From the NCBI GenBank assembly GCA_050012255.1, contig JBEKHN010000027.1:1-19593 (forward strand): a stretch of 19,593 nt of DNA, read 5' to 3'. Below are positions 1-19,390 of this stretch, piece by piece. The position numbers and the translations under genes were made by a program. The notes beneath the pieces are model-generated. The model was not told where the DNA came from, did not search any database, and saw only the letters and a program-made list of their open reading frames with translations. Numbering within the stretch: the first letter of the stretch is position 1; each line of letters opens with the position of its first letter. This DNA is from Candidatus Bathyarchaeia archaeon. Lineage in GTDB: Archaea > Thermoproteota > Bathyarchaeia > Bathyarchaeales > Bathycorpusculaceae.

Positions 1-75
1 ATCCGACAGGCAATCAAAGTAAACAGTAAGTTTTTCGAAGCATTGAACAAATGGATGGAGAGCATAAGAACTTAG
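1..75 (+). CDS. 3' end of an unidentified gene (partial, enters from left edge)
   Basis: Frame 1 is open from the window edge (IRQAIKVNSKFFEALNKWMESIRT) to TAG at 73-75; protein-like, but too short to identify. Confidence 0.45.
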   Translation: MRQAIKVNSKFFEALNKWMESIRT

Positions 76-99
76 GCAGTCGGCAGAAAGCGTAGTCTA

Positions 100-150
100 T
101 TTCGGTTCGGCTATAACTTTTCTGCAAAATCGAAAAACTGGCTTAACAAG
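100..150. repeat. Junction repeat family 1, copy A
   Basis: TTTCGGTTCGGCTATAACTTTTCTGCAAAATCGAAAAACTGGCTT; 100-131 matches 2334-2365 at 31/32 positions. Confidence 0.85.
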
Positions 151-193
151 ACCGATAGAGAATAGTCCAGCACAAAAACATGCGTGTGCCATC

Positions 194-1024
194 TCAAGCT
201 TTGGTAAGAAAACTCAATATAGCCTCATTGAATTCTCTTGGAGTTTCCATGTTTGACAGGTGTCCCGCTCCTTTCAGGGTCATTCTCTTAGAATTTTGTA
301 TCTTCTCACTCAGGATGTCAGCAATTCTGTGAAAATCTGGCAAGTCACGCTCACCCACGATAATGAGGGTCGGAACTTTAATCTCCTGAAGTCGTTCTAT
401 TGCGGGCGGGTCTAAAGAGCGTAGTGGGTCGGGGTTGACAAAGTGCCAGCCAGAGTAGTCAGAAATCATTTGTTTGAGTCGAAAAGCCACGTTTGGCTTC
501 TCGCAAGCTGGTTTAAATATGAGGCAATTCTTCCACATGTCTTTTGCTGCCTCTACGCCCTTTTCTTTAGCTTCTTTCCAGAGAGATTCCATCAATTCTC
601 TATAGGTCTTTGACCAATCTTGAAACCCTCCAAGAATGGAATCAACAAGTATGAGAGCCTTAGTCACTTCTGGATATTCAAGAGTGAAATCAAGAGCAAT
701 TCCGCCGCCCATAGAAAGACCGACAACGCATGCGTAGTCAATCCCCAATTGATTCAGAAGGGCTTTCAAATCCTTCGTGTGGCTGTATTCTTCCCCGATT
801 GTTGGAAGTGTTGACTTGCCAAAGCCACGCACATCGTAACGCACCACTTTGAAACGTTTTGCAAAGACCTCAAGCTGATCATCCCACATTTTAGAATTAA
901 GGGACCGTCCGTGAACAAGCACTAACGGGTGCCCACTGCCAACTATCCCGTAGTAAAGTCTAGTGTCATTCACTTCTGCAAAACCCTTGTCTACCAAACG
1001 CCAGACACTCAAACGAGTTAGCAA
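194..1024 (-). CDS. Alpha/beta fold hydrolase
   Basis: LVLVHG oxyanion motif, YDVRGFGKS, GLSMGG nucleophile elbow, GERD acid and GAGH catalytic His; true start may be TTG at 997 (MVDKGFAEVN). Confidence 0.93.
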   Translation of the reverse strand: MLTRLSVWRLVDKGFAEVNDTRLYYGIVGSGHPLVLVHGRSLNSKMWDDQLEVFAKRFKVVRYDVRGFGKSTLPTIGEEYSHTKDLKALLNQLGIDYACVVGLSMGGGIALDFTLEYPEVTKALILVDSILGGFQDWSKTYRELMESLWKEAKEKGVEAAKDMWKNCLIFKPACEKPNVAFRLKQMISDYSGWHFVNPDPLRSLDPPAIERLQEIKVPTLIIVGERDLPDFHRIADILSEKIQNSKRMTLKGAGHLSNMETPREFNEAILSFLTKA

Positions 1025-1044
1025 TGCCCATTCTGTTATATTTT

Positions 1045-1088
1045 AGCTTATGGCTTTTCCGCAAAACCAAAAACTGACTTTCTTCAAG
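1045..1088. repeat. Junction repeat family 1, copy B
   Basis: AGCTTATGGCTTTTCCGCAAAACCAAAAACTGACTTTCTTCAAG; its right end contains the TGA stop of the GNAT at 1084. Confidence 0.85.
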
Positions 1089-1620
1089 CAGTCTTTGTTA
1101 GTATTCTTGGTTCTTTCCATTCTTCTCGGAGAATGCTGAACATGAACATGTCTGTCCATTCTCCTCTGCAGAAGTAGCACTTTCGCATTGTTCCTTCTCT
1201 CTTAAACCCAACCTTTTCCAGAATCTTCTGAGAAATCACATTCTTGGTGTGAGTCGTTGCTACTATTCGAACAATGTCCTTTGAAAGGAAAAGATAGTCC
1301 ACCATTAGCTGAGCAGCTTCAGCGCAATAGCCTTTTCCTCTTTCACTTGGAACGAGACCATAGGCCAGTTCAAGCATATTCATATAAGTATTAAGAAAGT
1401 TGAAATGCATAATCCAACCAATTTTGCTTCCGTCTTTCTTCTCAATGATAAAATGCTTCGTTTCGAGAACAGTACTCTCTAGGAACCTCTCCATCCCTGC
1501 CCTAGTACCCTGTGTTGGAGAGAAATATTCAGCAAAGTCTGGGTTACTCCACCAGTCCACAAGAAATGGCACGTCCTCTTTCTCCGCTACCCTCAGGTTC
1601 ACATTCATGCCTTCAAGCAA
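1084..1620 (-). CDS. GNAT N-acetyltransferase, RimJ/RimL family
   Basis: VNLRVAEKED start, ERGKGY acetyl-CoA motif, N-x-x-S-x-x-x-LEKVGFKREG, C-terminal SILREEW. Confidence 0.93.
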   Translation of the reverse strand: MLEGMNVNLRVAEKEDVPFLVDWWSNPDFAEYFSPTQGTRAGMERFLESTVLETKHFIIEKKDGSKIGWIMHFNFLNTYMNMLELAYGLVPSERGKGYCAEAAQLMVDYLFLSKDIVRIVATTHTKNVISQKILEKVGFKREGTMRKCYFCRGEWTDMFMFSILREEWKEPRILTKTA

Positions 1621-1654
1621 TCAACGTCACCACTCAAAACGATAAGAGCAGTCC

Positions 1655-1698
1655 AGCTTTAACTCTTCCGCAAAACCAAAAAACTGGCTTTCTTCAAG
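1655..1698. repeat. Junction repeat family 1, copy C (left arm likely BRE/TATA promoter of the GNAT on the minus strand)
   Basis: AGCTTTAACTCTTCCGCAAAACCAAAAAACTGGCTTTCTTCAAG; about 36 nt upstream of the TTG start at 1620. Confidence 0.85.
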
Positions 1699-1725
1699 AG
1701 GCGTGCTTTCAAGGCAAATGAGCAA

Positions 1726-2307
1726 TCAAAAGATTATCTTGGTTGCTTCATATTTATCTCTAACAATTTCTTTTGCCTCAGGGATTAGTTTGCTCCAACT
1801 TCGGTTCAATTTATCCCTCAACCATTTCGTACCTTCATCTATATCCATTCCAAGTCTAACAAAAACAAAGTAAAGAAGTGCAGGTATTCGGTCAAAGTGT
1901 GCCATCGCATCGGCACTTGCAACGCATTTTGCGTCTAGAGTTTCTCTGTTAATTGCCTTACTCCCTCTGTGGGAATAAATACAATGCTTGACTTTTTCGA
2001 TTTTTTCTTGCGGATACTTGAACCTTTTCAGAATCTTTTCCGCCTCTTCAGCACCGAGCGAGTGGTGGTTCTCATAGTTGTCTCTATCCTTAATGCCTGC
2101 AATGTCGTGTAGCAAGGCTGCAATTTCCACGATTTCTTCATCAGCATGCAATTTCCTCGCAAGAAACTTACCATATCTTACAACAGAAAGAATATGATAA
2201 GTCCAAATCTCGTCGCCGAAAGTGTTTGTATCCTTTTTGCATTCTTCTTCGACAAGTTTTCTAATCTTCTCAACAATCCTCGAATCCATATTCCTGCCCT
2301 CAAGCAA
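1726..2307 (-). CDS. HD-domain metal-dependent phosphohydrolase
   Basis: YHILSV...AALLHDIA...HHSLGA...SHRG...ADA HD motifs. Start placed at TTG 2307 (MLEGRNMD) or ATG 2289; the ORF-track extension to 2421 runs through a repeat and is unlikely. Confidence 0.9.
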   Translation of the reverse strand: MLEGRNMDSRIVEKIRKLVEEECKKDTNTFGDEIWTYHILSVVRYGKFLARKLHADEEIVEIAALLHDIAGIKDRDNYENHHSLGAEEAEKILKRFKYPQEKIEKVKHCIYSHRGSKAINRETLDAKCVASADAMAHFDRIPALLYFVFVRLGMDIDEGTKWLRDKLNRSWSKLIPEAKEIVRDKYEATKIIF

Positions 2308-2333
2308 TCCAAATAACCAATCCACACAGTCAC

Positions 2334-2381
2334 TTTCGGTTCGGCTATAACTTTTCCGCAAAATCCCCTTTTTTCTAAGAA
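2334..2381. repeat. Junction repeat family 1, copy D (hybrid: family-1 left arm plus CCCCTTTTTTCT right arm)
   Basis: TTTCGGTTCGGCTATAACTTTTCCGCAAAATCCCCTTTTTTCTAAGAA. Confidence 0.85.
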
Positions 2382-2429
2382 TGTGAACTGTGGTTCTTGT
2401 TGACGGAGTTCCGCCGCGCACGCTATTGA

Positions 2430-3413
2430 TTATTCCACCAATAGTTTTCCATTCTGTATAAGCAAGCGCTTGTCAATCTTGACGGTTGGCTGAAGGAGGA
2501 TTCCGTCTAAATGAATGTTGCTCTTCGTGTGTCCACCAGGAAATGATGTGTTGTCTCCCACGGCAATATGCACTGTTCCCAACACTTTTTCATCTTCCAA
2601 CACATTTCCTATCAGGCGAGCCTTCGGATTGGTTCCAATACCCAGCTCGGCAATGTTGTAGGCGTTCTTGTCAGCTGCTTCCAAGATGCTCTTGAGTTTG
2701 GCTGCATCAGGACCAACGAGGCTTCGCGCCCTTCCGTCTTTCACGGCAATTTTTAGTGGCTGCGTTACCGACAGCCCCAGAGCGGTATCCACGAGGTTAT
2801 CTATGACCAGAGTTCCGCTTGTTGACCCTTCAACTGGTGCTAAGGCGACTTCTCCTGCAGGCAGGTTTCCAAAGTCCCCAGGCTTGTGAATCAAGCCCGT
2901 GTCTCTCATCGGTGGGCGTTCCTTGATGCTCATTGTCAAATCTGTTCCTGAAGGAGTTGAGATAGTGACTGCTGAACACTTTTGCACAAGCGTTGCCACC
3001 TTCTCCGTCAAAGATGCTACCTTTTTGTAGTCAGCTGTAAGTCCACCGACGCTCATCATGCCTTCAGTTATGCTTGGCATGCTGGCGATTCTTGCACCTT
3101 GTTTGGACGCGTTGCGCCGAGCGTCAGTATTTGAAAGCGACATGTAAGTAGGTGCAAGCACAACGTCAGCTGCTTTCATGGCTTCGGCAACGGGCTTTGG
3201 AGGCTCATCTCCATGACGTCTAGTAGGCTCCATAATCATAATGGTTGTTTTGGCTCCTATCGATGCTGCAGAACAAGCCAGAGCCTCAGCTATCTTCAGC
3301 ATCTTTGTATCAGTGACTATTAGAACGGTTTCCTCTGGTCTGATTTTCATGCAAGTCTCAACCGCGATTCGTGCACCTTTCATCATGGACATGTTCTCAA
3401 ACAAACGAGACAC
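2430..3413 (-). CDS. Aminopeptidase, thermophilic metalloprotease (M29)-like
   Basis: GNLPAGEV, ELGIGTN, EDEKVLGTVHIAVG and HLD metal-ligand motifs. Confidence 0.88.
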   Translation of the reverse strand: MSRLFENMSMMKGARIAVETCMKIRPEETVLIVTDTKMLKIAEALACSAASIGAKTTIMIMEPTRRHGDEPPKPVAEAMKAADVVLAPTYMSLSNTDARRNASKQGARIASMPSITEGMMSVGGLTADYKKVASLTEKVATLVQKCSAVTISTPSGTDLTMSIKERPPMRDTGLIHKPGDFGNLPAGEVALAPVEGSTSGTLVIDNLVDTALGLSVTQPLKIAVKDGRARSLVGPDAAKLKSILEAADKNAYNIAELGIGTNPKARLIGNVLEDEKVLGTVHIAVGDNTSFPGGHTKSNIHLDGILLQPTVKIDKRLLIQNGKLLVE

Positions 3414-3505
3414 CTCTTCCTCACTGGGGCGTTTCTTTCACGCCAAAAACACATGGTAGGAAGTTGCTTAAAAAAGGGTGCACATCAACAGCCCGCTCGA
3501 TAGTC

Positions 3506-3554
3506 GGGATTTGAACTATCTCCAGTGGCGATGTCTCCCGAAAAGTCCACTCTT
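3506..3554. repeat. Diverged junction repeat family 2 copy
   Basis: GTGGCGATGTCTCCCGAAAAGTCCAC resembles GTGACGTCGTCTCCCGCATTTTCCAC at 13000-13025. Confidence 0.5.
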
Positions 3555-3641
3555 AGCCTGGATTTCTCGTTTTTCCCAAGAATCAACTGGTCAAACATGC
3601 TTAAAAGGACTGATAGAAGCGTCTTCTATTTCGCGGGCGTA

Positions 3642-4226
3642 TTACAGCTTTATTTCTTTTGAACTGACGACCGTTCGTTCTATGTGCAGAGACGTGTGTA
3701 CTTTCAAGATTACTTTGTTCAGAACCAGTCTATCAACAGTGTCAAAGGTGTCTATCTTGAGAGATTTCGCTTCTTTCAATGCTTGGGAATACTGTTTCGC
3801 GTCAAAGTCAACTATTTTTGGGTCTAGAGCATTGTAACCAGCGTCTTTCTTGACAAACAAGCCAATACCGATATGGGGAATATACTCGATATCTCTCCTT
3901 AGGAGAGGCGACAAAATGCCAGTGTACAGTTCATCATGCAAGGCAATTGCTTTTTCATTTCCTTTTTTCAGTAGAAGAAGCAACCAGTGGTCCCAAGATT
4001 TCGTAAAACCTCCTATTTGAATGGGGAAAGGTTTCCATTTCTTCAATACGGTTTCAACGTGCTCTGTGAATTTCTCTTCTTCTATCTCATTGGAAGGAAC
4101 TGGGAATATGAACGGTATGTGTGGTTTCCAACAATCTACGAATGAATCATATTTTCTACGAAAAGCCTCGATATTCTCCTCAGTCTTCCTTTCAAACTTC
4201 GGATAATGAACCAACGAGTAATGCAT
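3642..4226 (-). CDS. 2H phosphoesterase / 2'-5' RNA ligase-like (YjcG-like) protein
   Basis: FRRKYD...PHIPFIFP and YIPHIGIG occupy the two HxT/S motif positions of the 2H fold. Confidence 0.75.
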   Translation of the reverse strand: MHYSLVHYPKFERKTEENIEAFRRKYDSFVDCWKPHIPFIFPVPSNEIEEEKFTEHVETVLKKWKPFPIQIGGFTKSWDHWLLLLLKKGNEKAIALHDELYTGILSPLLRRDIEYIPHIGIGLFVKKDAGYNALDPKIVDFDAKQYSQALKEAKSLKIDTFDTVDRLVLNKVILKVHTSLHIERTVVSSKEIKL

Positions 4227-4286
4227 AATAAAAGAATATGATGGCGACCTTCCTTTTTAAAACCCTAGCACAAGAGGTCTTTCGAA

Positions 4287-4328
4287 AGCTATAGCTCTTC
4301 TGCAGAATCGGAGACTGGCCCTCTTCAA
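4287..4328. repeat. Junction repeat family 1, copy F
   Basis: AGCTATAGCTCTTCTGCAGAATCGGAGACTGGCCCTCTTCAA; includes the TGA stop of the GNAT at 4325. Confidence 0.75.
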
Positions 4329-4867
4329 ATGGTTTTTGTCAATATCTTCGGTTCTTTCCATTCTTCTCTCAGAATGCTGAAGATGGCAAAGTCTGACCAT
4401 TCTCCTCGAATGTGGAAACATTTCCGCATTACGCCCTCTTTTTTGAAGCCTACCCTTTCCAAAACTCTCTGTGAAGCAACATTCTTTACAAGCGTAAGGG
4501 CTTGAATGCGAGGAGCTTCTTTGCCGAGGAACAGATAGTCCACCATTAACTGTGCAGCTTCGGTCCCGTAGCCCTTTCCCCTCTCACTTGGCATCAAAGC
4601 GTAGCCTATCTCCAGCAGTTTCCCAACGGGGCTTAACATGTTGAAATGAGATATGGTGCCGATTTTGGTTCCATCTTTCTTCTCTATAATGAATCTCTTT
4701 GATTCGTAGGGATTAGGTTCCAAAAATGCCTTTTCTGTTTCTGTCATAGACCTCTGAATTGGGAAGAGAGCTTCGCCCAAGAATTCTGGATCGTTATACC
4801 ATTCTGCAAAAAGCAGCAAATCCTCTTTCTCCATAATCCTCAGGTTCACATTCTTGCCTTCAAGCAA
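4325..4867 (-). CDS. GNAT N-acetyltransferase, RimJ/RimL family (paralog of 1084-1620)
   Basis: MLEGKNVNLR, ERGKGYGTEAAQLMVDYLFL, NVASQRVLERVGFKKEG, SILREEWKEPKILTK. Confidence 0.93.
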   Translation of the reverse strand: MLEGKNVNLRIMEKEDLLLFAEWYNDPEFLGEALFPIQRSMTETEKAFLEPNPYESKRFIIEKKDGTKIGTISHFNMLSPVGKLLEIGYALMPSERGKGYGTEAAQLMVDYLFLGKEAPRIQALTLVKNVASQRVLERVGFKKEGVMRKCFHIRGEWSDFAIFSILREEWKEPKILTKTI

Positions 4868-4896
4868 TCAGCGCCACCAGTCTACTTGTTTAACCA

Positions 4897-4931
4897 GGTT
4901 CAACTATAACTTTTCCGCAAAAGCGCGCGCT
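4897..4931. repeat. Junction repeat family 1, copy G, fused to an AGCGCGCGCT palindrome
   Basis: GGTTCAACTATAACTTTTCCGCAAAAGCGCGCGCT; about 36 nt upstream of the TTG start at 4867. Confidence 0.8.
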
Positions 4932-5199
4932 CCCTCAACGGTCGCGCTCCACCAAAAAAACAGAAAAACACTCACAACCTAACCAAACGAAAACGAGAAC
5001 AACCAACACAAGCACCAAAACCATCAACATCAGAATGACACAACTTACACTAGCAAAATAGCATCTGCGGTTAACCTCAAGAAAATAAACATCACTTCGA
5101 ACAAAATGCTCACAAACCTCATAAGCGCGCGCTTGCTTCTCTTCAAAACCTCAACTCGTTTTCGATGAACACAAGAAAAAAGAGGATAGTTGGAGTTCA

Positions 5200-5478
5200 C
5201 TATTCTTTTTTGCTTTCAGCCTCTATGCCAAGCAAATGCTTGGCGACCACTAGATGCATATGGGGAACTACAGCATGCAGACTAGCAAAGATTGCCAGCA
5301 ATAACCAAATCATTGGTTGTAGGCCAAGGGTGGTGTTCAAAGCGTCACCAGTGATTCCTAACGCAGCGAATAGAAAGCTAAAATACTGACCAACGCTACC
5401 AGCTAATGCACATCTTCTAATCTCAGCTATTACGTGCTCACGGTTCTTGAAAGGTTGCTGTTCTAAACGGGTTGCCAT
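5200..5478 (-). CDS. Small hypothetical membrane protein
   Basis: 92 aa, two hydrophobic segments, GGAGG upstream of ATG. Confidence 0.75.
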   Translation of the reverse strand: MATRLEQQPFKNREHVIAEIRRCALAGSVGQYFSFLFAALGITGDALNTTLGLQPMIWLLLAIFASLHAVVPHMHLVVAKHLLGIEAESKKE

Positions 5479-5653
5479 ATTGGATATCGCCTCCCTTTTC
5501 TTCCTAACAATAGCAGAATGTCAATAGCTTTCTTGCCCAGCGAATTGTATTAAAGACTTGGGAGAGGTATCAAAAGAAGACAGGAATCTGGGTTTAGCTC
5601 GCGGGAAAGAGCATATAAAAAAGGGATATTCGATATTGCGTATGTCTGGAAAG

Positions 5654-5974
5654 CTACTTAGTCGTCTCTGCGAGGATTTTCCATGCCTCTCTTGTGGCTG
5701 CCTTTCCCTTTTCCCAGGGGATTATCTCCTGTATCTCGAATTCTTCGAAGGGTATGAACATGCACACGTCTCGCAGGACAGTTGTGGATTCTCCTTCGCC
5801 GATTGCGTATCCTGATTTCCCGTCTAGAAACCATCCGAACTCTTTTATTTCGCCCGTTTTCATGAGCTTGTCTATGCCCGCCCACATCGTTTCCATGAGC
5901 TTTGCGGTTTCTTTAAGGTCTTTAGGCCATGGTGCTACGGGATTTCTGTGCCATAGTATCAAAAATCTTGCCAT
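5654..5974 (-). CDS. Hypothetical protein, possibly DUF3303/muconolactone-isomerase-like alpha+beta barrel
   Basis: 106 aa, GGTGG upstream, TATA-like element about 38 nt upstream; family assignment by resemblance only. Confidence 0.7.
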   Translation of the reverse strand: MARFLILWHRNPVAPWPKDLKETAKLMETMWAGIDKLMKTGEIKEFGWFLDGKSGYAIGEGESTTVLRDVCMFIPFEEFEIQEIIPWEKGKAATREAWKILAETTK

Positions 5975-6142
5975 TCAAAACCACCCGTTTACGATTATCT
6001 GTTCGTAAGCGTATAGCTCTTTTGGTAGTTCAATTCTTGAGCGCGCGCTAGACTTGTCCCTTTGTTATGCGTGCGCACTTGAACAGCCCGCACGGCTCCC
6101 TATCCAACATGAACAGCTTTACTGTTTTCAATGATGCTCGTT

Positions 6143-6180
6143 AAGTGTATATGCAAAGTGTATATGCAAAATGTATATGC
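6143..6180. repeat. Triple tandem 13-bp repeat AAGTGTATATGCA
   Basis: Copies at 6143-6155, 6156-6168 and 6169-6180 (third imperfect), between divergent genes. Confidence 0.9.
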
Positions 6181-6273
6181 TTTTAATTATGCGCTTTTTG
6201 CGAATTTAACGACAAGCCAGCGCGCTGCAGCGAAAAAGACGAAGTAGCTATATAGCGCAGTGGTGATGAGGGT

Positions 6274-7050
6274 TTGAGACAGCCTATGGACGGAATAATG
6301 CTCGAGTCGGTGACGAAATCCTTCGGCGACAACGTGGCCGTAAAAGACCTGACACTGTCCGTGTTGCCGGGTAAGGTTCATGGTCTTCTCGGTCCCAACG
6401 GGTCAGGGAAAAGCACAACGATGAAGATGGTCATGAGCATAGTCAAGCCTGATTACGGCAAGATCAGCCTCTGCGGCATAGATGTGCTGCGGCAACCCAT
6501 CGAGGCGAAAAGACTCGTGGGCTACGTCCCAGAAATGCCGTATCTTTACGATTACCTGACGGCTTCAGAGTACCTGGACTTCGTAGGCACAGCGTACGGC
6601 ATCGACCTGAAGACCAGGCGAGAGAAGGTTGATGAGCTGCTTAAGGCGCTGCAGATGAGCGAACACGTGAATGAAGTCATGAGCGGCTTCTCCCAAGGAA
6701 TGAAGCAGAAAATAGCAATCACAGCGGCTCTTCTTCACCATCCACGTGCCCTCGTTCTGGACGAAGCGTTGAACGGTTTAGACCCTAGGTCAGCCAAGAT
6801 CGTTAAGGATGTCCTTCAGCGCCTAGCCGGCGAAGGCGTCTCAATTCTCTTCAGTACGCACGTTCTCGAAATTGCAGAGGCCATGTGCAGCAGGATCACC
6901 ATCATGAACGAGGGAAGCATCATCGCCGAGGGAACGGTGCAGGAACTGAGATCAAAGGCTGGGATGCCCGGTTCGACGCTGGAAGACACTTTCCTGAAGC
7001 TAACCGGCAGCGAAGACACCGAGAAGATCGTTGAGGCATTGAAGCTTTGA
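6274..7050 (+). CDS. ABC-2 type exporter ATP-binding protein
   Basis: Walker A GPNGSGKST, signature FSQGMKQ, Walker B LVLDE, H-loop STH. Confidence 0.96.
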   Translation: MRQPMDGIMLESVTKSFGDNVAVKDLTLSVLPGKVHGLLGPNGSGKSTTMKMVMSIVKPDYGKISLCGIDVLRQPIEAKRLVGYVPEMPYLYDYLTASEYLDFVGTAYGIDLKTRREKVDELLKALQMSEHVNEVMSGFSQGMKQKIAITAALLHHPRALVLDEALNGLDPRSAKIVKDVLQRLAGEGVSILFSTHVLEIAEAMCSRITIMNEGSIIAEGTVQELRSKAGMPGSTLEDTFLKLTGSEDTEKIVEALKL

Positions 7051-14647: not shown

Positions 14648-15550
14648 ATGCTGGACCAGAAATATGTGACATTCTACGCTCGATCGAGCGGAGTCCCATT
14701 GGATGTAGCAGAAAGAAACGTGGTTCTGACCTATGTCTTGCGGATCCTGTCGGAGAGCGCTCTGCCAGAGTTAGCTTTCAAAGGGGGAACATGCCTGAAG
14801 AAGACCTACTTTGGAAGAACTGGGCGGTTCTCGATGGATCTGGACTTCACGAGTTTAGGTGTGACCGTGGAAGAACTCCGAAATGTGCTCGGAGGTCAGC
14901 TACGTAACCATAGTCATTATGGCATTAACTTCAAAATTGCAGAGGAAAATGTCAGGGCAGGATTCGGTGCTGGTGCTGAGTCTTACATGGCCGTCGTCGA
15001 CTATGCTCACAGTTGGAATGCCAGTGGGTTCACGCTTGAGGTCAGTTACAGAGAGAATCCACTTCTTCCTCCCCAGGATGTGCTTATTTCGGATGAGTTG
15101 TATTTCAAGTTCCTTGAGTTTCAGAGATTTGCTCTAAGATGCTTGCAGAAAGATGAGCTTCTGGCCGAGAAGCTACGGGCAGCATTCCAGAGAATTCGAG
15201 GACGTGATCTTTACGACTTGTATTTGTTCTCGGAAAGGCCGTTTGACAGAGATTTGGTTAGAAAGCTTGTTGTTGTCAAATGCTGGAATGTCAGAGAACC
15301 GTTCGTTCCAGAGTCGCTCTTGGATCAGATAGCGACGGAAAGATACGATTGGGCCGATCTGCAGCGATTGGTCAGAAAGGGAGATCTGCCTTCTGAAGCA
15401 GCGCTCGTTAGAAAAGTCGTTAAAGAGTATGGGTTCCTGAAAGATTTGGACAGTGATCTAAACAAGATAGTCAAAGATTCCAAATCTCATAGGAACAGCA
15501 GGCTAGTGGCAGAAGTTCTGAAGGCTGCAGCAAAGCAAAGCGCGCGCTGA
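14648..15550 (+). CDS. abiEii: AbiEii/AbiGii-family nucleotidyltransferase toxin
   Basis: FKGGTCLKK...RFSMDLDF, AEKLRA and RDLYDLY motifs. Confidence 0.93.
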   Translation: MLDQKYVTFYARSSGVPLDVAERNVVLTYVLRILSESALPELAFKGGTCLKKTYFGRTGRFSMDLDFTSLGVTVEELRNVLGGQLRNHSHYGINFKIAEENVRAGFGAGAESYMAVVDYAHSWNASGFTLEVSYRENPLLPPQDVLISDELYFKFLEFQRFALRCLQKDELLAEKLRAAFQRIRGRDLYDLYLFSERPFDRDLVRKLVVVKCWNVREPFVPESLLDQIATERYDWADLQRLVRKGDLPSEAALVRKVVKEYGFLKDLDSDLNKIVKDSKSHRNSRLVAEVLKAAAKQSAR

Positions 15551-19058: not shown

Positions 19059-19390
19059 ATGCGACTACCTACTGTGCACGTGACTTTTCACCTTCTGAAG
19101 AAATTAGCCTTGTGAACCCCAAATCAAGAGCAGAGATAAGGGCCTTCCAACGTTTCATAGCTCGCGCAAGCGCCGTTCTTTGATTCTGGACCGCCGATGC
19201 TCGTCATTCAGAATGAACCGTCGCCCGTGAGATAAGCGCGCGCTCTCTCGAACTTATCGCATCGCCTTGTAAGGGACTGTGTCGATTATTGCTTCGAACT
19301 ACTCTGCTTAACAGTTGATCAGTCCTACGCGCTGGAGATGTTACATATTTGGCTCCAAATATGCATGATACATTGAAACCGAGGAGGGGT

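Follow-up and report, generated by a model that had tools for sequence, protein, structure and literature searches.

The window examined here is a stretch of 19,593 nt from Candidatus Bathyarchaeia archaeon (contig JBEKHN010000027.1 of assembly GCA_050012255.1, a genome of 2.35 Mb labelled G000 below), and our subject is an array of genes and short junction modules at its beginning. Bases 1-5000 contain six genes, all on the minus strand, and, as had been proposed in an initial annotation made from the sequence alone, six copies of a junction module of about 45-60 bp stand among them in a single orientation, each with a 20-mer core that we were able to locate (Table 1). Read on the gene strand, the module runs from a T-rich right arm (..AGCCAGTTTTTGG) through the core TTTTGCGGAAAAG into a sequence, GTTATAGCTGAACC, that resembles an archaeal B-recognition element (BRE) and TATA box. 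The core common to the copies measures 13 bp, the left arm is TTATAGCTGAACC(GAAAG), and the consensus in the window is a right arm ..CTTGAAGAAAGCCAGTTTTTGG, then TTTTGCGGAAAAG, then TTATAGCTGAACCGAAAG. Throughout, G and L labels denote relatives' genomes and motif loci, C labels with a number denote contigs of G000, X labels denote metagenome runs, and signed positions count from core base 1 (+1) along the gene strand.

The finer features of these junctions also proved to be as first described. Both genes of the GNAT family end at a TGA that lies within the right arm, with both open reading frames (ORFs) terminating 17 nt ahead of the core, and the first in-frame TTG follows the 20-mer by 35-36 nt in GNAT1, GNAT2 and the HD-domain gene. 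Sites D and G retain the core and left arm and have unrelated sequence immediately upstream of TTTTGCGG. The HD gene is framed by a GNAT-type leader (2292-2327) and by a GNAT-type tail word 25 nt past its own stop. The proposed layout of one gene to one site holds for most of the array and fails between sites D and E, which enclose a two-gene unit because the gene resembling M29 peptidases has no junction copy upstream of it; the same pair of ligase-like gene and 327-aa gene lies between two sites in the relative G008. Site A, the terminal copy, has no co-oriented gene downstream and faces a plus-strand frame already open at the contig start, with its stop at 73-75, and arrays of the relative G001 likewise close with a terminal copy facing a convergent gene.

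Table 1. Genes and junction sites of the array in the window, with the integrase loci that lie beside sites in other places.
Feature	Coordinates	Strand	Remarks
Site A, terminal copy	100..160, core 110-129	(-)	core TTTTGCAGAAAAGTTATAGC; right and left arm present; nhmmer E 2.2e-10
Alpha/beta hydrolase cassette, 276 aa	194..1024	(-)	Abhydrolase_1, 1.2e-24
Site B	1040..1097, core 1047-1066	(-)	right arm and TTTTGCGGAAAAG, then deviant CCATAAG replacing TTATAGC; E 3.8e-6
GNAT1 cassette, 178 aa	1084..1620	(-)	Acetyltransf_3; TGA stop inside right arm of site B
Site C	1648..1706, core 1656-1675	(-)	variant core TTTTGCGGAAGAGTTAAAGC; right arm CTTGAAGAAAGCCAGTTTTTTGG
HD-domain protein cassette	1726..2291 (ATG at 2291; ORF open to 2421)	(-)	family match; repeat family D2
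Site D	2334..2365, core 2344-2363	(-)	perfect 20-mer; left arm, without right arm
M29-peptidase-like gene, 327 aa	2430..3413	(-)	no junction copy upstream
Orphan distal right arm	3599..3621	(-)	minus strand CGCTTCTATCAGTCCTTTTAAGC; matches class-1 right-arm consensus; separated from core D by the M29-like gene
2',5' RNA ligase / 2H-phosphoesterase-like cassette, 194 aa	3642..4226	(-)	family match
Site E, degenerate	4282..4338, core 4288-4307	(-)	TTCTGCAGAAGAGCTATAGC; E 0.0024
GNAT2 cassette, 180 aa	4325..4867	(-)	TGA stop inside right arm of site E
Site G, array head	4896..4930, core 4903-4922	(-)	without right arm; GCGCGCGC (4923-4930) abuts core base 1
Site-adjacent integrase loci	G000 C1:296259-298639; L038:1406-3600; L051:1913-3943		

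The module occurs far more often than its composition would give by chance. Allowing one mismatch, the 12-mer TTYYGCARAAYC is found 11 times in the window against 2.46 expected, with 1 of 200 shuffles reaching 11, and across the whole genome the 20-mer TTTTGCGGAAAAGTTATAGC, with up to four mismatches, returns 20 hits against 2 for the reversed word, 6 of the 20 lying in the window's first 5 kb. A profile search, suggested at the outset as a check, bore the motif out: an nhmmer profile seeded with 28 copies having at most three mismatches, from which B and E were absent, finds 19 copies at E<0.01 in the genome, B and E included. The arms were never found without the core, and the left arm and BRE/TATA part are confined to this family. 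A scan of the whole window with Rfam gave 0 matches at the gathering score, and no tRNA.

Outside G000, a first sample of the genus showed the 20-mer (two mismatches allowed) in 9 of 10 other genomes at 1-15 copies each. A survey of the family at one mismatch or fewer found it in 50 of 301 genomes belonging to 26 of 70 genera, with a maximum of 28 copies per genome; the reversed 20-mer occurred in 0 of the 301, and two large genera are nearly free of the motif (2 of 89 genomes in one, 0 in the other). In a collection of species representatives, the exact 20-mer occurs in 115 stretches, and 75 of the 80 that were listed carry titles of Bathyarchaeia or Bathyarchaeota. The other five (L068, L079, L096, L104 and L129) have bacterial or methanogen titles, are contigs of 3.6 to 31.5 kb and bear typical arms; these are probably mis-binned archaeal contigs, with transfer as the alternative. 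From these counts, the distribution of the motif is patchy and spans multiple genera, with copies that are mostly letter-perfect. One contig of a virus collection has the 20-mer, and the seven ORFs near that site gave no PHROG match and one unrelated Pfam match, which is uninformative.

For the analysis of breakpoints, we gathered the motif surroundings from eight relatives and G000, 96 copies in all, the loci being chosen for holding the motif and compared under identity thresholds with crude ORF calls. One case is the block formed by GNAT1 and the HD gene (window 1054-2363), which matches G001 at 98-98.9% identity with its two ends inside cores B and D and unrelated flanks beyond them, in loci whose backbone is 91-94% identical between the two genomes. 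At B the homology to G001 stops at core base 13 and at D it begins at core base 1; site C is the sole site that keeps both of its flanks in a relative. GNAT1 recurs at 93-98% identity in G001, G003 and G007 with differing upstream neighbours. GNAT2 is 92% identical in G007, where its leader differs and the homology begins at +55. The ligase-like gene has an 80% identical copy in G001 with a site downstream instead, and the M29-like gene matches G009 at 93% from a contig end; for the hydrolase cassette, no match was found among five relatives. Matches to GNAT2 in G007, to the M29-like gene in G009 and to the 92-aa ORF at 5200-5478 in G008 and G009 stand about 60 nt or less from a site; for the ligase-like gene in G001 the distance is about 100 nt. 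On the largest contig of G000, C1, bases 296259-297022 match G008 at 97.25% over 764 nt, starting from core base 1, and the best match of G008 to the window outside cassettes is 77%.

The same picture holds when the copies are taken as a set. In 46 in-register pairwise alignments, blocks shared on the downstream side begin between -26 and 0, mostly between -10 and 0, with one at +55, and blocks shared on the upstream side end between +12 and +27, five of them at +12. Pairs of copies that reach 85% identity along one 400-nt flank number 33, of which 22 share the downstream flank only, 10 the upstream flank only and a single pair both; two or more different neighbours are found upstream of each of nine downstream gene families. 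When 161 distinct copies were compared without gaps under stricter criteria, there were 14 downstream-only pairs, 3 upstream-only pairs and 0 sharing both. At random control points in the same loci, counting those with any conserved flank, both flanks remained adjacent at 60 of 108, against 1 of 11 motif points. In one place G009 has a solo degenerate site 3' of a gene with an AP-endonuclease fold, where G001 has an array of three cassettes.

Metagenome runs were compared with the window as well. In the run X1, 0.91 of the sampled words of window 1-5600 are present, and X1 may be the sample from which the window was assembled; its error-free contigs span all six window sites in the pieces 69-1127, 1623-3675 and 4236-5600. 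In 23 runs from 15 other studies of peat, wetland and sediment, 0.16-0.28 of the words are present, and contigs of four metagenome runs cover single cassettes at high identity. Contigs pile up at the sites, with a summed depth of 145-6530 in site bins versus 12-16 along the window's own path in X1. A joint from 2363 to 3599, found in X1, X4 and X9, skips the M29-like gene by way of a right-arm piece of 9-10 nt. Such joints, which link sites in combinations other than those of the window, have short sides of 21-44 nt, for which other arrays could be the source; because the sides are this short, we read these joints as other arrays of the community and not as circles.

The proposal that the sites bound gene-sized units occurring in differing contexts among relatives is therefore upheld, 32 of the 33 pairs being one-sided. 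Judged from the sequence comparisons, units made up of core, left arm, gene, right arm and next core have evidently been duplicated, deleted, reordered and passed between species, with homology ending in the module or at its edge, and this supports regarding the module as a recombination junction. The companion proposal, a fixed crossover in the CCGCAA core, was not borne out by the comparison: switches occur anywhere between the left of core base 1 and about +25, and in some cases at the GNAT leader or stop.

The module also has the appearance of a regulatory sequence. Archaeal promoters have a purine-rich BRE directly upstream of an A/T-rich TATA element centred about 26 nt before the transcription start. 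GGAAAAG followed by TTATAGC has this form, and TTATAG lies about 40 nt ahead of the gene starts; the related hexamers TTATAT, TTTATA and TTAAAT are 8-fold enriched upstream of the genes of this genome, and TTATAG itself is uncommon (9 of 340 upstream regions in G000). A BRE/TATA reading of the left arm is thus plausible, and it would predict a transcription start near +42, which would give the hydrolase a leaderless mRNA and the GNAT and HD genes a short leader bearing GAAGG before their starts. On the other side of the core, the right arm together with TTTTGC contains two or three oligo-T runs, a known form of archaeal termination signals, and the right arm (..TCTATCAGTCCTTTTAAGCCAGTTTTTGG), being part of the 3' end of the upstream gene, may serve as an archaeal terminator. 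On the strength of the BRE/TATA form, the hexamer enrichment and the oligo-T runs, we read the module as a candidate terminator plus promoter, in which case each unit would be insulated and self-expressed. Neither the folding of 95 copies nor Rfam gave a structured RNA or a single-stranded DNA hairpin at the sites.

Because the switch points vary, the explanation that we favour, tentatively and at a little less than an even chance, is general short-homology recombination and gene conversion acting on a conserved terminator-promoter module. The module would be a lineage-specific junction of about 45-60 bp bounding self-contained accessory-gene units, on which the general recombination machinery of the cell would make crossovers or gene conversions using 26-45 bp of near-perfect identity. 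Gene conversion would keep the copies identical in concerted evolution, each junction would become a hotspot, and occasional illegitimate events would put new coding sequence between a GNAT-type leader and tail, all without need of a dedicated integrase. The positions of the individual switches illustrate the variation. At B the switch lies at or before +12. The copies on contigs C1 and C21 of G000 share the right arm and a C13 variant, which places their switch at or beyond +13. In L010:4442 and L041:555 the upstream side is common and core bases 1 and 7 differ, with the switch left of base 1, and a paralog of the ligase-like gene on contig C6 is cut at +19/20. Copies A and D, 92% alike over 38 nt, are by all appearance homogenised within G000, and in the HD cassette 2 of the 13 bases at +13 to +25 differ from G001 as against about 1% beyond.

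Several observations weigh against short-homology recombination as the whole explanation. The 20-mer is letter-perfect in most copies across its patchy 26 of 70 genera, which exceeds what a promoter would need and would be expected of a sequence-specific enzyme or of a shared mobile pool. In several hybrid or truncated copies, D, G, B and L008:7341 among them, the break falls precisely at core base 1 or after G13; a G008 copy is capped by CGCGCGCG, and in L092 an inverted left arm is joined at +13. In terminal copies, the TATA part has decayed and TTTTGCGGAAAAG is still perfect. Linkage is lost even though flanks are 94-99% identical, so the rate would be high for homology of 26-45 bp. To these must be added the nature of the sample, since all genomes are metagenome assemblies (G001 being a single contig), the copy pairs are non-independent, with one GNAT family supplying many of them, and, as mentioned, loci were selected by the motif.

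The alternative that we take most seriously is a site-specific cassette system like integrons or Xer-dif modules, in which a recombinase acting in trans, likeliest among the 10-21 tyrosine recombinases, would exchange inside TTTTGCGGAAAAG while circles excise and insert; we consider it possible and somewhat doubtful. Beyond the perfect 20-mer and the empty reversed control, it would account for the one co-oriented site per gene with a terminal site closing the array (n genes having n+1 sites), for the sharp homology edges, whose downstream-side starts (-26 to 0) and upstream-side ends (+12 to +27) are all compatible with exchange in bases 1-13, for copies truncated or hybrid exactly at G13|T14, for the solo site of G009 facing an occupied array in G001, and for the loss of linkage in 32 of 33 flank-sharing pairs. 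Several switch points nevertheless fall outside bases 1-13, and the search for an enzyme did not bear out a dedicated system of the kind initially proposed, finding no recombinase, tyrosine or serine, that co-occurs with the arrays. Serine recombinases were absent from 6 of 6 motif-rich genomes. Hits to the tyrosine recombinase family PF00589 number 9-21 in every motif-rich genome examined and none is conserved with the arrays; Xer-like hits are among them. Not one of the 14 hits of G000 is on the window's contig, nor is any of the 9 in G001 close to the four arrays there, so that no IntI stands at an array head. Only one of the 14 has a close ortholog in G001 (88% aa identity), not beside an array, and this shared integrase (G000 C5 14983-15990) was rejected as a candidate, being one of a widespread multi-copy family whose occurrence in 41 genomes does not follow the motif. 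In each of G000, G003 and G006, a homologous tyrosine integrase (430-475 aa, the three sharing 58-59% aa identity) does lie one gene downstream of a site, and the three may represent integrative elements by which cassettes are carried or the site is used; the G000 member, however, has no ortholog in G001 (best 26%) despite about 12 sites there. In several genomes, a few sites have an integrase at a distance of about 2 kb or less, which by a rough estimate is only a few-fold above chance, with both features lying in variable regions. Nor does the site fold like attC, which is an imperfect palindrome of 57-141 nt folding as single-stranded DNA (R''-L''/L'-R'). When 95 copies (-40 to +30) were folded on both strands with DNA parameters, the mean free energies were -5.2 and -4.8 kcal/mol and the median z score against shuffles about -0.5, and GTTATAG, read from the sequence, does not fit GTTRRRY; that the repeat is not attC, as first claimed, is confirmed. 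Inspection of the consensus by eye shows dyad symmetry in TTTT-GCGG-AAAA and a weak outer pair only. For lack of an attC-like fold and of an adjacent integrase, membership among integrons was rejected.

The module could also be a plain cis-regulatory promoter and operator of an accessory or stress regulon under a lineage-specific transcription factor, its edges being produced by selection for whole promoter-gene units and by co-duplicated flanks of a growing GNAT family. The BRE/TATA-like sequence does stand at the right distance from gene starts, T-rich, quasi-palindromic sequence (TTTT-GCGG-AAAA) immediately precedes the BRE, the position at which archaeal activators bind, Lrp/AsnC-type helix-turn-helix (HTH) genes occur within 1.4 kb of sites in four loci, and 6 of the 19 G000 copies precede GNAT paralogs, with arms resembling the GNAT leader and tail. 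We nonetheless judge a regulon improbable. Terminal copies (window site A, three G001 arrays) drive no gene, an opposite-strand gene follows some sites (L046:1526, L041), the homology of the upstream gene regularly enters the core of the next site, one flank is lost at 91% of motif points versus 44% of control points, and letter-perfect conservation across genera would be unusual for an operator. Only 24 of 99 perfect copies in other species precede a GNAT leader, so the repeat is not simply a GNAT flank, and no housekeeping gene was found among the site neighbours in the examined genomes, so it is not a housekeeping promoter; both possibilities had been named from the start as ones that would undo the cassette reading. 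With at least 13 members in G000, most of them distant from sites, the HTH family was rejected as a fixed platform of the arrays; a recurrent head word, TTTCTGTCTTTGAGG, occurs also without the HTH gene. Less probable still is a small non-autonomous mobile element, of the kind of a miniature inverted-repeat transposable element (MITE) or mobile promoter, inserted between pre-existing genes. Copies at many contig ends, and similar short sequences upstream of unrelated genes that recall the reused promoters reported in prokaryotes (PMC3575422), would suit such an element, but the copies lack terminal inverted repeats and target duplications, no insertion polymorphism of the element by itself was seen, arms do not occur apart from the core, and genomes differ in the gene between sites and not in the site between conserved genes. 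Among the loci compared, no orthologous gene pairs differ only by a 45-60-bp element; likewise, the inverted ends, half-sites and cases differing by the element alone that would mark a MITE or insertion sequence were not found.

Set beside known systems, the array has features of several. Like integrons, it consists mostly of single, co-oriented, unrelated small genes, each followed by one lineage-specific repeat, its cassettes occur as independent units in different arrays and orders and are the unit of gain, loss, duplication and transfer, and its content is rich in GNATs, methyltransferases and hydrolases; homogeneous attC repeats are likewise carried by sedentary chromosomal integrons (e.g., Vibrio VCR arrays). 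Unlike integrons, it has no attC hairpin and no IntI beside the arrays, the arrays are short (2-6 sites) and stand at 5-8 places per genome, and the site itself carries a promoter-like BRE/TATA, so its cassettes would be self-expressed, whereas integron cassettes are driven from Pc. Sites of the present kind would not be matched by the attC and IntI models with which the archaeal integrons of Ghaly et al. 2022 were detected (PMC9668308). The dif modules of Acinetobacter plasmids are described as bounded by 28-bp XerC/XerD sites of 11-6-11 layout in alternating orientation (PMC6449649, PMC13141974). They too are accessory-gene modules between short conserved sites that are shuffled between replicons, with no recombinase gene inside or beside them, and, by the same sources, they use a host enzyme in trans; here the sites are chromosomal, archaeal, direct repeats with weak dyad symmetry, without the 28-bp site, the 11-bp inverted arms or the alternating orientation of dif. 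As in the reused or mobile promoters of prokaryotes, which are described as near-identical promoter-sized sequences upstream of non-homologous genes within and between genomes (PMC3575422), the same promoter-sized sequence precedes non-homologous genes; unlike what is described there, the repeat also follows genes, closes arrays without a gene and matches the homology edges of units on both sides.

The attachment sites of lambda-type tyrosine integrases have variable arms around a short identical core, and the homology of the partners ends at the core edges. The variable arms around a 13-bp core, with homology ending at its edges, are similar here; the integrase, arm-type binding sites and defined overlap region are absent, and some exchanges lie outside the core. 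Literature searches judged by title and abstract found nothing on gene cassettes in Bathyarchaeia and nothing relevant for Bathyarchaeota with integron, and a search on Bathyarchaeia mobile elements gave nothing relevant among the matches listed. The array is a variant of integron-like arrays, repeat-bounded modules and reused promoters, in archaea where none of this kind was found in the literature searched. The bolder proposition, an integron analogue of a family of Bathyarchaeia, built of different parts, in which self-expressing single-gene cassettes are exchanged within and between genera by a trans-acting recombinase cutting the 13-bp core between a terminator and a promoter, we hold to be possible and rather doubtful. 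If it is true, every inserted gene would arrive insulated and switched on. The exchange of genes one by one at arrayed recombination sites has been known chiefly from the integrons of bacteria. In either case, accessory genes of widespread archaea of peat, wetland and sediment appear to be packaged as promoter-gene-terminator units that move between genomes and genera, across a junction that no current tool would flag. A dedicated enzyme, if there is one, would make this a new class of cassette system; if there is none, nature would here offer a clear case of a promoter module that serves as a portable hotspot of recombination and owes its uniformity to gene conversion. The junction further offers a handle in uncultured archaea for finding the flexible gene pool, explaining assembly breaks and testing promoter and terminator function.

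The genes beside the sites are of many families. In G000, the co-oriented ORFs downstream of sites encode six GNAT paralogs, the HD protein, two hydrolases, two 2',5'-ligase-like proteins, two DUF4760 proteins, one phosphorylase-superfamily protein and some products without a Pfam match; on the upstream side, sites follow a methyltransferase and a GNAT from a different family. Relatives add flavodoxins, FMN reductase, SnoaL-like, DsrE, OsmC, polyketide cyclase, glyoxalase, NUDIX and creatininase proteins. Among the 99 perfect copies, the downstream side is a DUF4760-type start in 15 and something other than this or the GNAT leader in 60; the upstream side is a GNAT tail in 10 and a second conserved right-arm class (..TCTATCAGTCCTTTTAAGCCAGTTTTTGG) in 31. 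A 253-aa methyltransferase on contig C6 of G000 (62080-62841) ends in a GNAT-like tail, KEPKILTKRA, and this gene and the HD gene, with their GNAT-derived ends (window 2267-2327 and 1698-1725 in the case of HD), look like coding-sequence replacements inside a GNAT unit. Near the array head, an ORF of 92 aa at window 5200-5478 has no family match and no upstream site here, and it is a site-flanked cassette in G008 (87%) and G009 (81%).

Tandem pairs of related tyrosine recombinases (G000 C1:303292-306029; L016:7643-9999) belong to a multi-copy family with at least six members in G000, and in G007 one such pair lies 1.8 kb from a GNAT2-type cassette. Many contigs end no more than a few hundred bases from a junction site (at window base 1, at the end of G000 C23, and in many contigs of G003, G007 and G016). 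Short-read assemblies therefore break at the arrays, which repeats or strain variation would lead one to expect. The words GCGCGCGC stand between genes at window 4923-4930, 5125-5132 and about 15540-15549, and similar words cap truncated site copies at G000 C6:41055, L011:9824, L023:5028 and in one G008 copy. GC palindromes were rejected as a feature of the site: GCGCGC lies within 140 nt of 18 of 192 copies, which by a rough estimate is about its genome-wide rate of 0.98/kb, and it is 2.8-fold enriched upstream of genes in G000.

Other repeats are present in and around the window. An A/C-rich low-complexity tract on the plus strand (4931-5100) adjoins the array head, and CA-rich tracts precede several array heads elsewhere (L093, L118, L016:5255) in an orientation that is not constant. 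About 185 bp at 6043-6227 match dozens of places in G001 and G007 at 73-89% and look like a dispersed repeat family unrelated to the junction site. Finally, a 46-bp word at 19344-19389 (up to 19593) recurs at 91-94% on many contigs of G008, G009, G001, G003 and G007 as a short dispersed repeat.

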